From Escherichia coli (GTDB lineage: Bacteria > Pseudomonadota > Gammaproteobacteria > Enterobacterales > Enterobacteriaceae): a stretch of DNA of 64,000 bases. The translations under genes were made by a program, and so were the position numbers. The first letter of the stretch is position 1, and every line of letters starts with the position of its first letter. Location: NCBI RefSeq assembly GCF_044324785.1, contig NZ_CP172127.1; one strand, given 5' to 3'. Below are positions 27,119-57,303 of this stretch, in pieces. The notes below the pieces were generated by a model, which was not told the origin of the DNA, did no database searches, and saw only the letters and a program-made list of their open reading frames with translations.

Positions 27119-27194
27119 TGGCTCCTCTGACTGGACTCGAACCAGTGACATACGGATTAACAGTCCGCCGTTCTACCGACTGAACTACAGAGGA
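27119..27194 (-). tRNA. asnV: tRNA-Asn (GUU)
   Basis: Reverse complement is the 76-nt E. coli tRNA-Asn, UCCUCUGUAGUUCAGUCGGUAGAACGGCGGACUGUUAAUCCGUAUGUCACUGGUUCGAGUCCAGUCAGAGGAGCCA. Confidence 0.97.
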
Positions 27195-36880: not shown

Positions 36881-39800
36881 ATGAGCGGAAAACCGGCAGC
36901 ACGTCAGGGCGATGCCACAATGAAAGGTGGCCCGATAGTCCAGGGGTCGGCAGGCGTGAGGATTGGCGCGCCAACCGGCGTGGCCTGTTCAGTGTGCCCC
37001 GGCGGATTCACTTCCGGTAACCCGGTGAATCCGCTGCTCGGTGCAAAAGTACAGCCCGGCGAAACCGATTTCGCGCTGCCCGGCCCGTTACCGTTCGTGC
37101 TCTCCCGCACCTACAGCAGCTACCGGACGAAAACCCCTGCGCCCGTCGGTATCTTCGGTCCTGGCTGGAAAGCACCCTTTGATATCCGCTTACAGATACG
37201 CGATAACGAACTGATACTCAATGATAACGGTGGCAGAAGCATTCATTTTGAGCACCTGTTTCCCGGTGAGGATGGCTTCAGCCGCAGCGAATTATTCTGG
37301 CTGGTGCGCGGCGGCGTGGCGAAACTGAATGAAAGTCACCGTCTTGCCCCACTCTGGCAGGCTCTGCCGGAAGAACTCCGCATGAGTCCGCATATTTATC
37401 TGGCGACGAACAGTCCGCAGGGGCCGTGGTGGATACTCGGCTGGAGTGAGCGGGTACCGGGTGTGGATGAGGTGCTGCCTGCGCCATTGCCGCCGTACCG
37501 GGTGCTGACCGGCCTGGTGGACCGCTTCGGGCGTACCCTGACCTTCCGGCGTGAGGCAGTTGGCGAATTTACCGGGGAAATCACCGGCGTGACCGATGGC
37601 GCAGGCCGTCAGTTCCGCCTGGTGCTGACCACGCAGGCGCAGCGGGCGGAAGAGGCCCAGCAGCAGGCGGTTGCAGCCGGAGCAAAACGACCAGATATCC
37701 CGGTTTCATTGCCGGACTATACAGAATATGGCCGGGATAACGGCATCCGCCTGTCAGCGGTGTGGCTGGCGCATGACCCGGAATACCCGGAGAATTTACC
37801 TGCCGCGCCACTGGTGCGCTACGACTGGACGCCACGCGGTGAACTGGCGGCGGTGTATGACCGCAGCGGTACGCAGATGCGCCACTTTACTTACGATGAT
37901 AAATACCGGGGCCGGATGGTGGCGCACCGTTACGCAGGCAGGCCGGAGATGCGTTACCGCTACGACGACATCGGGCGCGTGACGGAACAACGTAATCCGG
38001 CGGGTTTAAGCTACACCTATCAGTATGAGAAAAACCGCATCATCATCACCGACAGCCTGAACCGGTGCGAGGTGCTGCATACAGAAGGCGAAGCCGGGCT
38101 GAAACGGGTGGTGAAAAAAGAGCACGCTGACGACAGCGTCACACAGAGTCAGTTCGATTCCATTGGCCGCCTTCAGTCACAGACGGATGCGGCAGGCCGG
38201 ACGACAGAATACAGTCCGAATGTGGTGACGGGTCTCGTCACACGCATCACCACGCCGGACGGCAGGAAATCGGAATTTTACTATAACAACCAGAACCAGT
38301 TAACCTCAGCATCCGGGCCTGACGGACTGGAAATGCGCAGGAAATATGATGAGTACGGGCGTCTGACGCAGGAAACCGCTCGCAACGGCGATATCACCCG
38401 CTACAGTTATGATAATCCGCACAGTGAATTACCCTCTGCAACTGAAGATGCGACGGGTAGCCGCAAGCAGATGACGTGGAGCCGTTACGGGCAGTTACTG
38501 ACTTTCACCGACTGCTCAGGCTACCAGACCCGTTATGAATACGACCGCTTTGGTCAGATGACGGCGGTCCACCGTGAGGAAGGTGTCAGTCTTTACCGCA
38601 GCTATGACAGCCGTGGTCAGTTAATCTCGGTGAAAGATACGCAGGGCCGTGAAACGCAGTATGAGTACAACGGTGCAGGCGACCTGACCGCCATTATCAC
38701 GCCAGACGACAACAGAAGCGAGACACAGTACGATGCGTGGGGAAAGGCCGTCAGTACCACGCAGGGCGGGCTGACGCGCAGCATGGAATACGACGTTGCC
38801 GGACGTGTCATCAGCCTGACCAACGAGAACGGCTGTCACAGCGACTTCAGTTACGATGTGCTCGACCGCCTGATACAGCAGAGCGGCTTTGACGGGCGGA
38901 CGCAACGTTACCGTTACGACCTGACCGGGAAACTCACGCAGAACGAGGATGAGGGGCTTGTCACCCTCTGGCACTACGACGAATCGGACCGTATCACACA
39001 CCGCACGGTGAACGGCGAACCGGCAGAGCAGTGGCGGTATAACGACCACGGCTGGCTGAAAGAAATCAGCCACCTGAGCGAAGGTCACCGGGTGGCGGTG
39101 CATTACGGCTATAACCGTAAGGGACGTCTCACCGGCGAGCGCCAGACGGTGCATAACCCGGAGACGGGGGAACTGCTCTGGCTGCATGAGACAAAACACG
39201 CCTACAACGAACAGGGTCTGGCAAACCGCGTCACGCCGGACTGCCTGCCTGCTGTGGAGTGGCTGACCTACGGCAGCGGTTACCTGGCGGGGATGAAGCT
39301 GGGCGACACGCCGCTGCTGGAGTACGCGCGCGACCGCCTGCACAGAGAAACGGTGCGCAGCTTTGGCAGCATGGCAGGCAGTAATGCCGCATACGAACTG
39401 ACCAGCACATACACCCCTGCAGGCCAGTTACAGAGCCAGCACCTGAACAGCCTGGTGTATGACCGTGACTACGGGTGGAATGACAACGGCGACCTGGTGC
39501 GCATCAGCGGCCCGCGACAGACGCGGGAATATGGCTACAGCGCCACGGGCAGGCTGGAGAGTGTGCGCACCCTCGCACCGGACCTGGACATCCGCATCCC
39601 GTATGCCACCGACCCGGCGGGCAACCGGCTGCCGGACCCGGAGCTGCACCCGGACAGTACACTCACGGCGTGGCCGGATAACCGCATCGCCGAAGACGCG
39701 CATTACCTGTACCGTTACGATGAATACGGCAGGCTGACGGAGAAGACGGACCGCATCCCGGCGGGTGTGATACGGACGGACGACGAGCGGACCCACCACT

Positions 39801-41062
39801 ACCACTACGACAGCCAGCACCGTCTGGTGTTCTACACGCGGATACAGCATGGCGAGCCACTGGTCGAGAGCCGCTACCTCTACGACCCGCTGGGACGGCG
39901 AATGGCGAAAAGGGTATGGCGGCGGGAGCGTGACCTGACGGGGTGGATGTCGCTGTCGCGTAAACCGGAGGAGACATGGTACGGGTGGGACGGCGACAGG
40001 CTGACGACGGTGCAGACTGACACCACGCGTATCCAGACGGTGTACCAGCCGGGAAGCTTCACGCCGCTCATCAGAATCGAAACAGACGTGACCGAACTGG
40101 AGAAAGCGCAGCGGCGAAGCCTGGCGGAGAAGTTACAGCAGGAAGGGAGTAAAGATGGTCACGGCGTGGTGTTCCCGCCTGAACTGGTGCGGCTGCTGGA
40201 CAGGCTGGAGGGGGAAATCCGGGCAGACCGTGTGAGTGACGAAAGCCGGGCGTGGCTTGCGCAGTGCGGGCTGACGGTGGAGCGGCTGGCGGCACAGATC
40301 GAGCCAGTTTATTTGCCTGAGCGAAAAATACATCTTTATCACTGCGACCACCGGGGACTGCCGCTGGCGCTTATCAGTACTGAAGGTGCAACGGAATGGC
40401 GTGGGGAGTATGACGAGTGGGGGAATCAGCTTAATGAGGAGAACCCGCATCATCTGTTCCAGCCATACCGCCTGCCGGGGCAGCAGTACGATGATGAATC
40501 GGGGCTGTGCTATAATCGTTATCGTTACTACGAGCCGTTACAAGGGAGGTATATTACACAGGACCCGATTGGGTTAAATGGGGGGTGGAATTTATATAAA
40601 TATCCGCTGAATCCAATAAATTATGCAGATCCTCTTGGCTTAGCCGTAGATATAAACCACTTCCCAGTCAACGAAGACATACGAAATTATGCAGAGAAAG
40701 TTTGGAATAATCCTAATATCATTACAATTGGAACACATGGTGATCCTCAATCAGTATATGATGAAAATTATAATAAGATAGATGTCAAGACATTAGCTAA
40801 TGAGGTTCGAAATCATCCTAAATTTAAACCTGGAATGTCAGTAAGACTGTTATCCTGTAATACAGGAAAAGGAAATAACTCTTTTGCACAGCAATTGGCA
40901 GATGAACTAGGTGTGAGAGTCTATGCTCCTGACCAATATGACTGGTACTATTCAAATGGTAAGGTAGAGCCTTGGGGAGGATTCTATGATGCAAACAATC
41001 AATTGCAAATGGACACGAATCAGCCTGGACATGAGTTTACATTCAAGCGAAGGAAACCATAG
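36881..41062 (+). CDS. Rhs-family polymorphic toxin: N-terminal PAAR-like domain, YD-repeat core, variable C-terminal toxin domain
   Basis: 1393 aa; N-terminus [38 protein letters not shown] (PAAR-like); many YD repeats (..RYRYDDIGR.., ..YEYDRFGQ..); core ends in the PxxxxDPxGL motif ([14 protein letters not shown]); SD AAGGAT upstream. Confidence 0.95.
40643..41059 (+). other. Variable C-terminal toxin domain of the Rhs protein (139 aa, low GC)
   Basis: Sequence after [144 protein letters not shown]. Clear drop in GC relative to the core. Confidence 0.8.
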
Positions 41063-41064
41063 GT

Positions 41065-41667
41065 ATGAGGTATTTTCTCTTTATATTTATAACAATCCCC
41101 CTTATCTCTGGAGGTCATATGAGTAATGATAGCGAAAAGATAATATCAACATATTCGCTCAATTTTTTATCACCAGATGATGTGAGGAAAGAAGAACTTA
41201 AGGCATCACAAGGTGATAGTGATGCTGCATTTAAATTGTACAAATATTACCTTTTTTGCGAGCCAAAATCATACAGAAAACAGCACGAATGGTTAATAAT
41301 ATCGGCAAATAATGGAAATGCTATAGCTCAATATAACTTATCAAGAGAACTTGAGTCAGAAGGAAAAGTAGATGAATCAATACAATGGCTGAAAAAATCA
41401 GCGGAACATGGTAATAATTATGCACAATATCAGATGTCAAAATATTTATTAAAAATAGGTGATATTAGAGGATCGGAATATTATCTAAACTTATCTGCGG
41501 ATAACGGATGTGTATTTGCAATAAAAGATATTATCAAAAATATGATGGATAGTGGAAGGTACGATGACGCCCTCATTTGGGTTGAAAAATTGAAAAAATT
41601 GTATCCTGACACAAATACCGAACTTTACATACAAAAAATAACGCAGAAAAAAAAGCAATCCAAATAA
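41065..41667 (+). CDS. Putative cognate Rhs immunity protein with Sel1-like repeats
   Basis: Starts 2 nt after the rhs stop; AT-rich; Sel1/TPR-like repeats (..GNAIAQYNLSRELESEGKV..SIQWLKKSAEHGNNYAQYQMSKYLL..). An alternative start ATG at 41119 has a strong GGAGG SD. Confidence 0.7.
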   Translation: MRYFLFIFITIPLISGGHMSNDSEKIISTYSLNFLSPDDVRKEELKASQGDSDAAFKLYKYYLFCEPKSYRKQHEWLIISANNGNAIAQYNLSRELESEGKVDESIQWLKKSAEHGNNYAQYQMSKYLLKIGDIRGSEYYLNLSADNGCVFAIKDIIKNMMDSGRYDDALIWVEKLKKLYPDTNTELYIQKITQKKKQSK

Positions 41668-41955
41668 TAATTATATATAATTACTCGCACAGAGTTACAG
41701 TATTGCAAGAAATATATCTAGCATATAAAGTCGCCGCCAGTAAAGATAAAGTACTGTGTAATCCTTCCTCCCATATAGGGGTAAAAACTTAGCATCCAGT
41801 GCCCTCGACTTAATTTTTAGTATTTTCTCTGTGAAGTGACACTTCGTAGGATTCAGTTCATGTTTACCAGAAAAAAGGTGGTCATTCTGGTGGTCTTGAC
41901 AATCTCGATTTTTTGTTTTAGCTTTCCAATCAGCCAATTAATGGCTACGGCGATC

Positions 41956-41975
41956 CCAGTCAGAGGAGCCAAATT
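41956..41975 (+). repeat. Island right-end direct repeat (attR): copy of the tRNA-Asn 3' end
   Basis: ccagtcagaggagccaaatt is identical to the 3' end of asnW plus 4 nt of flank (31412..31431). Confidence 0.8.
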
Positions 41976-42032
41976 TTAGTTTTGAGACATCTCTATGAGT
42001 CTCAAGACAGTTAAAAAATAAAAATTATTTTT

Positions 42033-42067
42033 ACCCGGTTACCTTGTAAAAAGTGACCGGGTTTTTT
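42033..42067 (+). terminator. Rho-independent terminator (probable ancestral asnW terminator, displaced by the island)
   Basis: Hairpin acccggttaccttgtaaaaagtgaccgggt followed by a run of 6 T, just after the attR repeat. Confidence 0.6.
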
Positions 42068-42419
42068 GATTTCTGTGTTTCGTGCGCTTAATCGAGTCTC
42101 ACGCTTCGGTGAGCAAATTGCCCCCCAACAGACATCACGATTCGCAAGGTCAAAAAATTCGTTCCGTGAAGTACCATACAAAGGTATAGAGAAAAATGCC
42201 TTATGCGGGATGTTGCTGTCGCGTTTTTATCGGGAAACTAAACGTAATTGCCACTTTGTCTTCTGTAATCAGAAAAAGAAAACCTGGAATTTTAATAAAT
42301 ATTATTTCTCTGGGGCCGGTATTTTTATAATCAATATGATGGGTTGAATATTATATTTTTTATAGGAATATATGAGATTAAAGAAATCTGCCATAAAGAC
42401 AGATTCCTTTAAAATATAA

Positions 42420-57227: not shown

Positions 57228-57303
57228 TGGCTCCTCTGACTGGACTCGAACCAGTGACATACGGATTAACAGTCCGCCGTTCTACCGACTGAACTACAGA
57301 GGA
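57228..57303 (-). tRNA. asnT: tRNA-Asn (GUU)
   Basis: Fourth identical 76-nt tRNA-Asn copy, between yeeJ and mtfA. Confidence 0.97.

Follow-up and report, generated by a model that had tools for sequence, protein, structure and literature searches.

The closest described counterpart of the locus analysed here is the end of ICEKp1 of Klebsiella pneumoniae, an element of the high-pathogenicity island (HPI) family carried in tRNA-Asn (Liu et al., Nucleic Acids Res 2026; PMC13023037). According to that study, ICEKp1 has a conserved 3' end with a sigma-70 promoter, P3'end, nearby. In the excised circle, transcription of int starts 15 bp 5' of attP, and point mutations in the -35 and -10 boxes led to a loss of activity, which supports P3'end as the int promoter (PMC13023037). 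The same study states that P3'end drives int only in the excised circle, in ICEKp1 as well as in ICEEc1, that ICEEc1 of E. coli (ED1a) behaves like ICEKp1, and that the 15 bp counteract termination within the int 5' flank (PMC13023037). As a precedent for an outward-facing promoter, it cites Pcirc of ICEclc (Pseudomonas, tRNA-Gly) (PMC13023037).

Here, we describe the corresponding end of a genomic island in the window, the 64,000-nucleotide stretch of E. coli DNA that was analysed, together with a 39-codon ORF that spans its right junction (Table 1). Comparison across many copies of this region indicates that the ORF arises by accident over a DNA control element that is conserved, and that it is not the gene of a small membrane protein. 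By the same evidence, the underlying DNA is strongly conserved across Enterobacterales for a non-coding reason, which is hidden from a reading of this one sequence. The segment 41877–41975 is very probably the int-distal arm and core of an asn-tRNA island of the HPI/ICEKp1/ICEEc1 family, with the ORF as a by-product.

Table 1. Positions in the window of the island, its two ends, the ORF and the matches to published ICEKp1 oligonucleotides.
Feature	Position	Strand	Remarks
tRNA-Asn gene asnW	31352–31427	+	Entry 31352–31431; 3' end is the attL core, 31412–31431
Int-proximal att arm block	31538–31588	+	Invariant across the HPI family; ends at the int ATG (31589)
P4/HPI-type tyrosine integrase gene, frameshifted	31589–32850	+	Arm-DNA-bind_3, Phage_int_M and Phage_integrase domains, divided between two reading frames
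Island cargo	36881–41667	+	Rhs core protein, 36881–41062; TPR/Sel1-like protein, 41119–41667
39-codon ORF	41860–41979	+	Translation MFTRKKVVILVVLTISIFCFSFPISQLMATAIPVRGAKF*; judged an accidental frame over the att arm
ICEKp1 primer F6	41873–41892		GATTGGTGGTCATTCTGGTG; 17/20 positions match
GGTGGTC direct repeats	41877–41895	+	41877–41883 and 41889–41895, 12 bp apart; conservation starts here
Sigma-70 promoter signature toward the core	41896–41924	+	TTGACA 41896–41901; spacer 41902–41918; TAGCTT 41919–41924
ICEKp1 primer F_attR	41915–41944		GGTTTAGCTTACTTATTAGCCAGTTATTGG; 23/30 positions match
Core-proximal conserved block	41928–41955	+	IHF-like site, palindrome and the 15 nt before the core
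ICEKp1 attR/P probe	41945–41971		CAAAGGCGATCCCAGTCAGAGGAGCCA; 25/27 positions match
attR core	41956–41975	+	20-bp direct repeat: last 16 nt of tRNA-Asn plus AATT
Chromosomal flank of attR	41976–42170	+	Fossil int-proximal arm and truncated integrase start of a second asn-tRNA island type

The window covers the asn-tRNA cluster of E. coli, with asnV at 27119 (- strand), asnU at 29528 (-) and asnW at 31352 (+), and further tRNA genes at 57228 (asnT, -) and 58295 (serU, +). The island occupies 10.5 kb in the tRNA-Asn gene asnW, between asnW and yeeN, and is delimited by the 20-bp direct repeat of the attL and attR cores. A preliminary description had placed an attR repeat and an island junction at this point, and both were borne out: CCAGTCAGAGGAGCCA is present at 41956–41971 and again at 31412–31427, the tRNA-Asn gene's 3' end. 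The N-terminal fragment of the integrase is 65% identical to the HPI integrase over 146 amino acids. At the other end of the island, the TPR/Sel1-like gene, whose product is presumed to be the Rhs immunity protein, is the last gene before the arm. A 401-nt query across the right junction (41660–42060) was matched at 100% identity in strain N3 (NZ_CP031609.1), where RefSeq annotates the island with a frameshifted tyrosine integrase by the tRNA, a further integrase-like pseudogene, one small winged-helix and one hypothetical protein, a 1393-aa Rhs core protein and the TPR/Sel1-like protein. Pfam agrees with the RefSeq assignments of the island genes. Because the integrase of this island is frameshifted, its att-arm module is, most likely, a relic with no function or a residual one.

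On the integrase side, the 160 nt between asnW and the int ATG are homologous to the matching flank of the E. coli HPI, and this int-proximal arm had matches in 2812 of the 5426 E. coli genomes, among them HPI copies that lie beside ybtS. Its conserved block carries GGTGGTCA (31540), GGGGTCA (31553) and an inverted GGGGTCA (31579–31585). Past attR, ~200 nt of the chromosomal flank align with an intact island of the second type, over its int-proximal arm and first integrase codons, with the start-codon region deleted. The fossil, which 5354 of 5426 E. coli genomes carry, supplies the TAG stop of the ORF. The flank (fold z = -4.8) also contains two strong hairpins (41979–42008 and 42033–42062), the second of which is followed by a T-run (42063–42068) in a terminator-like arrangement.

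The conserved module of the integrase-distal arm is 79 bp long and consists of the two GGTGGTC repeats, TTGACA-N17-TAGCTT and the core-proximal block, with the tRNA-derived core next to it. Over 97 distinct copies its consensus reads GGTGGTCAtTcTGGtGGTCTTGACAg, ~8 hypervariable nt, TTcagg, TTTAGCTTAnttaTtAGCCAgTTAcTGGCaAaGGCGATC and then the core, with capitals for the positions that at least 90% of the copies share. The GGTGGTC repeats are putative arm-type sites for the N-terminal domain of the integrase, a reading suggested by the occurrence of the same heptamer in both arms together with a heterobivalent integrase that has an Arm-DNA-bind_3 domain; a literature search for integrase binding to GGTGGTC, or for arm-site footprints in this family, found none. 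Next to the repeats, TTGACA is exact in 85 of the 97 distinct copies and TAGCTT in 82. The two are spaced 17 nt apart in 68 of the 75 copies that have both, and the sequence of the spacer is saturated with changes. Two fixed hexamers around a spacer of fixed length and free sequence form the classical signature of a sigma-70 promoter, so we read TTGACA-N17-TAGCTT as a putative outward-facing promoter of this type, pointing at the att core. A generic promoter scan did not flag it and called no site in the arm, as TAGCTT matches just three of the six positions of the -10 consensus.

In the core-proximal block, AATCAGCCAATTA (41928–41940) of the window copy is a full match to the IHF consensus, WATCARNNNNTTR. 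In the family's majority class, the conserved C of this site is mismatched. A palindrome, AGCCAATTAATGGCT, lies at 41932–41946, and the 15 nt ATGGCTACGGCGATC at 41941–41955 are homologous to the '15-bp' stretch of ICEKp1 that runs from the int transcription start to attP. From these features we infer IHF and core-type roles for the block.

It is possible, although we would bet against it, that ~41925–41955 is conserved mainly for an RNA role and not for the binding of proteins to DNA: int transcripts made from the excised circle would have it as their 5' leader, and its last 15 nt would pair with a stem-loop of the int 5'-UTR and relieve termination. The high conservation of the core-proximal block is in line with such a role, as are two results given in the ICEKp1 study, in which deletion of the 15 bp abolished reporter activity of the full excised-state fragment, and the same 15 bp restored a heterologous promoter placed 5' of the int 5' flank (PMC13023037). 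The pairing, however, is described there as the authors' own proposal, awaiting validation (PMC13023037). Moreover, the palindrome, the IHF-like match and the position by the crossover core fit DNA-level roles equally well, and a permissive Rfam search over the region returned sub-threshold chance matches only (best, manA-II with 30.9 bits, where the gathering score is 100), with no family above threshold. An RNA leader would in any case complement the att-arm explanation and not exclude it.

The matches of the ICEKp1 oligonucleotides (F6, F_attR and the attR/P probe) are colinear along the arm of the window (Table 1). A further E. coli copy of the module agrees with F_attR at 29/30 positions and with the attR/P probe at 27/27, and intermediates between the window module and the ICEKp1 type form a graded series. 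The colinear matches, together with the near-complete ones on that further copy, place the window module in the same island-end family as ICEKp1, as judged from the published primer and probe sequences. TTGACA and TAGCTT are candidates for the actual P3'end hexamers, and two estimates of the transcription start lie ~10 nt apart: the start predicted from TTGACA-N17-TAGCTT falls at ~41931, and the published '15 bp' map it to ~41941, inside the ORF, if attP is the 17-bp repeat.

The distribution of the module was assessed by searching with the island side of the junction (41668–41955). The whole stretch was found in ~91 E. coli genomes, as near-identical copies of the same island, and ~300 further E. 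coli genomes matched 41869–41955 only, at 77–95% identity. These shorter matches are the right ends of unrelated islands at asnT, asnU and asnW, whose cargo includes VgrG/PAAR in one, another Rhs in one, and ISAs1 with hypothetical genes in one. When the window is aligned with these unrelated islands, similarity begins abruptly at AAGGTGGTCA; the ATG of the ORF and everything 5' of it are unrelated.

A pattern scan of one genome per species identified the module in 23 loci and in 22 other Enterobacterales species, the genera including Citrobacter, Klebsiella, Enterobacter, Pectobacterium, Erwinia, Pantoea, Lonsdalea, Rouxiella and Limnobaculum, among others. All of these copies adjoin a tRNA-Asn core, except for one Morganella copy with a tRNA-Phe-type core. 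Because the scan forced the arm repeats and TTGACA, this sample is unfit to measure their conservation, and a weak hint of third-position excess that it gave in 13 codons was gone in a second, core-anchored sample. The latter was anchored on the core junction alone (GGCGATC plus core) in metagenomes, and gave 120 loci with 97 distinct 95-nt right ends, in which conservation starts sharply at the first GGTGGTC. An origin of the arm in a P4-like satellite or phage was considered too and is unsupported, since the arm had no match in a phage collection or in viral contigs.

Turning to the ORF, translation of the + strand gave the 39-aa product reported in the preliminary description, with the hydrophobic stretch claimed for it (maximum 19-residue Kyte-Doolittle mean of 2.56) and with a tRNA-derived C-terminus, the last eight codons being tRNA/att-core sequence. 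The stop (TAG, 41977–41979) lies just beyond the attR repeat, in the chromosomal flank. The ORF thus begins in unique island DNA and ends 4 nt past the 20-bp repeat.

The length of the ORF is explained by chance, as the window has 254 ATG-initiated ORFs of at least 39 aa in six frames, compared with 238 ± 15 in composition-preserving shuffles, and at least one occurs in 38% of the shuffles made from the local 393-nt non-coding stretch. About a dozen other short ORFs (20–93 codons) overlap on both strands of the intergenic region; among these, the reverse-strand ORFs at 41695–41937 and 41853–41972 were examined and showed nothing above noise. None of the listed genomes that carry the region has a RefSeq annotation over the ORF. 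The hydrophobicity of the peptide also has a source in the DNA: GGTGGTC-ATT-CTG-GTG-GTC-TTG and the T-rich spacer are read in this frame with T at second codon positions, which makes the product of this conserved T-rich DNA hydrophobic.

A real small membrane peptide specific to this lineage, perhaps a toxic one, translated by read-through of the Rhs-immunity operon, is in our view a very unlikely product of the ORF. The lineage may translate the frame to some extent, given a plausible Shine-Dalgarno sequence (AGGA, 8 nt 5' of the ATG) and the result of a terminator scan, which found no terminator-like site on the + strand between the end of the TPR gene (41667) and the ORF (41860). The 19-residue stretch is also strongly hydrophobic, and the MFTRKK start is kept in the ~91 E. 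coli genomes (right end at least 97% identical) and in the predicted proteins P0001–P0003. These ~91 genomes are, however, near-identical copies of one island, so that retention of MFTRKK is uninformative on selection.

Comparative coding tests, carried out on the 97 distinct metagenomic right ends and, for the spacer and the hydrophobic core, on the 84 copies of canonical length, argue against such a gene. Entropy summed by codon position was flat over the 97 copies (12.83, 12.05 and 13.26 for first, second and third positions), and outside the spacer it was highest at first positions (7.37, 5.93 and 6.2). There was no third-position excess across the 97 right ends, i.e. no codon periodicity. 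An in-frame stop fell inside the element in 20 of the 97 copies. Among the 77 with an open frame, 51 had no upstream ATG, and the 26 that had one gave ORFs of 33–109 aa spanning the element. Spacer stops were found in the ORF frame in 17 of 84 copies, compared with 7 and 10 in the other two frames and with 22.6 ± 3.8 expected from shuffles, which indicates no avoidance of stops in the ORF frame. As a side observation, open frames in 77 of 97 copies could by themselves be taken for conservation; the stop counts are the measure that shows no avoidance.

The uncharged middle of the 'TM' segment was kept in 9 of 84 copies, with charged residues or stops interrupting it in the other 75, and the codons of the spacer change radically between copies (ISIFCF, RRECWF, KRKFRI, TSEFRF). 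In other islands the ORF region is conserved only from codon 6 onward, and as DNA, the ATG at 41860 being confined to this island lineage. Even within the lineage the C-terminus shifts with the insertion site, giving 39, 45 or 56 aa: the same island lineage at asnU has a 45-aa product with a different tail, since the flank differs, and the last eight residues in the window are set by the tRNA sequence. One variant of the lineage has a 3-nt (one-codon) deletion and one is internally frameshifted.

When the 47-aa GTG-extended frame was used as a query against 5.8 billion proteins, 30 sporadic, domain-free 'hypothetical proteins' of 38–82 aa were recovered. They have only the translated module in common, their N- and C-termini being unrelated, and one of the 30 reads the arm in another frame. 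The peptide had no match in Pfam or NCBIfam.

Conservation in other islands was the check that the preliminary description had proposed, taking its absence as evidence against a gene, and protein-level conservation was indeed absent. The suggestion of a small membrane peptide is not supported, in that start, stop, length, frame integrity and hydrophobicity are all unconserved. The caution in the same description that the ORF may be accidental agrees with the results on length, annotation, conservation, periodicity, stops and the hydrophobic core.

Slightly less probable again is a dual-coding frame, in which a lineage- or state-specific membrane peptide would be made, so that the arm would be recombination site, promoter and peptide gene at once. 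Such a peptide could come, for example, from read-through of the Rhs-immunity operon in this island or, in the excised circle, from an extended frame running across attP. An equally improbable idea, that the conserved segment is a mere degenerate tRNA remnant (pseudo-tRNA) kept by descent and functionless, has in its favour a weak similarity for 5 nt past the exact repeat (CGATC vs CGAGT) and a palindrome, AGCCAGTTAATGGCT, loosely like the Asn anticodon arm, including GTTAA, but it was rejected, as ARAGORN finds no tRNA there and Rfam nothing, the GGTGGTC/TTGACA part also stands beside the tRNA-Phe-type core in Morganella, and a mostly near-invariant block in 84 canonical-length distinct copies, including 22 other Enterobacterales species, adjacent to a cargo side and a 14-nt spacer saturated with changes, argues for selection and not drift.

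The explanation that we favour, an int-distal att arm and core over which the ORF is a by-product, would work as follows. One of the three forward frames of the T-rich conserved arm DNA happens to be stop-free; an unconserved ATG 17 nt 5' of the arm in this island lineage provides the start, and whatever chromosomal DNA follows attR the stop. The GGTGGTC repeats would be bound by the Arm-DNA-binding domain of the integrase, matching GGTGGTCA/GGGGTCA in the other arm, and the block between the repeats and the core would bend or position the DNA via its IHF-like site and palindrome. After excision and circularisation, the TTGACA-N17-TAGCTT promoter would read across attP into int and so favour re-integration, a circle-dependent step that is experimental in the homologous ICEKp1 and ICEEc1 3' ends and is proposed by homology in this island. 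While the island is integrated, any transcript that starts at this promoter would enter the flank and meet the hairpin and T-run at 42033–42068, where outward transcripts from the arm probably end before reaching the convergent yeeN.

A feature of this kind has already been described; what is new is the breadth of its distribution, its block anatomy, and an explanation of spurious small-protein calls. In Enterobacterales, the conserved att arm is a recurrent source of false 'hypothetical protein' calls (38–82 aa), and the hydrophobicity and apparent 'homologs' of such arm ORFs could mislead small-protein screens. The module of ICEKp1 and ICEEc1, in which arm repeats overlap a -35 box and are joined by a fixed-length spacer and a core-proximal block, recurs across many genera in many asn-tRNA islands that are non-conjugative and decayed. 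It offers a convenient marker of the true right boundary of such islands and, wherever it is not followed by a terminator, may drive outward transcription into host genes.

Among known systems, E. coli has small hydrophobic type I toxins and membrane peptides (Hok, Ldr, Ibs, TisB and ShoB), which the ORF resembles in being short, hydrophobic, intergenic on a mobile element and below annotation cut-offs. The ORF differs from them in that the frame, its start and its hydrophobic core are unconserved, it has no family match, and no cognate antisense RNA was identified.

A second comparison is with the P' arm of lambda attP, which contains the arm-type sites P'1–P'3 and the IHF site H'. As in lambda, the integrase is of the heterobivalent kind and has its arm-binding domain at the N-terminus, both arms contain short direct repeats at some tens of bp from the core, and an IHF-consensus match stands between the repeats and the core in the window. 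Unlike the lambda P' arm, to which it has no sequence relationship, the window arm has two repeats rather than three, and binding to them is putative. No promoter that drives int across attP is known in the lambda P' arm.

ICEclc Pcirc, reportedly described by Sentchilo et al. in 2003, shares with the window module the principle of a far-end promoter that is joined to int only on circularisation. The two are unrelated in sequence, integrase subfamily and tRNA target, and the distance to attP is 80 bp for Pcirc versus 15 bp.

The nearest likeness is to the P3'end region of ICEKp1 and ICEEc1. The window element differs from these in being no ICE but a 10.5-kb decayed Rhs island with a frameshifted integrase, and its core-proximal block belongs to a 'CCAATCAGCC...GGCTACGG' subclass, as opposed to the 'CTTATTAGCC...GGCAAAGG' subclass of ICEKp1 (23/30 identity). 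With them it shares the integrase family and the int-proximal arm, and at the int-distal end of the island, abutting a tRNA-Asn-derived core, it carries a module with a sigma-70-like signature directed toward that core.

Inside the decayed element at asnW, a second integrase remnant, which is annotated as frameshifted in RefSeq and is unrelated to the first, suggests that the island is a nested or composite element. The two direct repeats are found between these integrase pseudogenes, in an AT-rich, gene-poor part of the island. The Rhs core protein carried as cargo (1393 aa; DUF6531, RHS repeats and RHS core) is orphan-looking, and is followed by a TPR/Sel1-like protein of 182–200 aa that is presumed to be its immunity protein. 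Other Rhs or VgrG/PAAR cargo was seen at related right ends in two other islands (L003 and L004). Islands of this family thus seem to act as carriers that move modules for contact-dependent toxins around.

Features of the island, its flank and the comparison loci
Feature	Location	Strand	Remarks
Two 131-nt direct repeats	window 33052-33182 and 33280-33410		73% identity to each other
42-nt imperfect palindrome	window 33076-33161
Second integrase remnant	window 34388-34795	-	Phage_int_SAM_2 and Integrase_1 domains
Winged-helix HTH_35 gene	window 35713-35901		Adjoins second integrase remnant
Rhs core protein and TPR/Sel1-like protein	window 36881-41667		Island cargo
Fossil of another island type	window 41972-42170		Directly outside attR; similarity to integrase arm
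Intact arm and first codons of the corresponding asn-tRNA integrase	L002 (another island):6511-6700
GGTGGTC-N5-GGTGGTCTTGACAA arm module	L025 (Morganella morganii):178-290		Same module as in window

Beyond attR, the fossil region shares ~80% identity with the arm next to the tRNA, and with the opening codons of the integrase, in a different type of asn-tRNA island; the start codon has been lost through a 14-nt deletion. Of 5426 complete E. coli genomes, 5354 have the fossil part of this region, which would thus seem to date back to the ancestor of the species.

A single database protein (P0016) matched by the translated arm frame reads MFTRKKGGHSGGLDNLDFCFSFPISQ...; its arm repeats are translated out of frame with the ORF, whose frame is regained afterwards. 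This switch and return implies that the arm of one genome either contains paired indels or was sequenced with errors.

The right ends of one Rhs island lineage were 99% identical between the window (31352-41975) and strain 2015C-3107 (L154). In the window this lineage occupies asnW, while in strain 2015C-3107 it occupies asnU, adjoining cbl. Insertion of the Rhs island has therefore not been confined to a single asn tRNA gene, despite the frameshifted integrase in the window. In Morganella morganii, the arm module adjoins a core resembling the 3' end of tRNA-Phe (CCGAGTCCGGGCACCA), and an 18-nt spacer separates TTGACA from TATCAT downstream. This arrangement suggests that a design of arm repeats plus putative outward promoter is also common to phe-tRNA islands.
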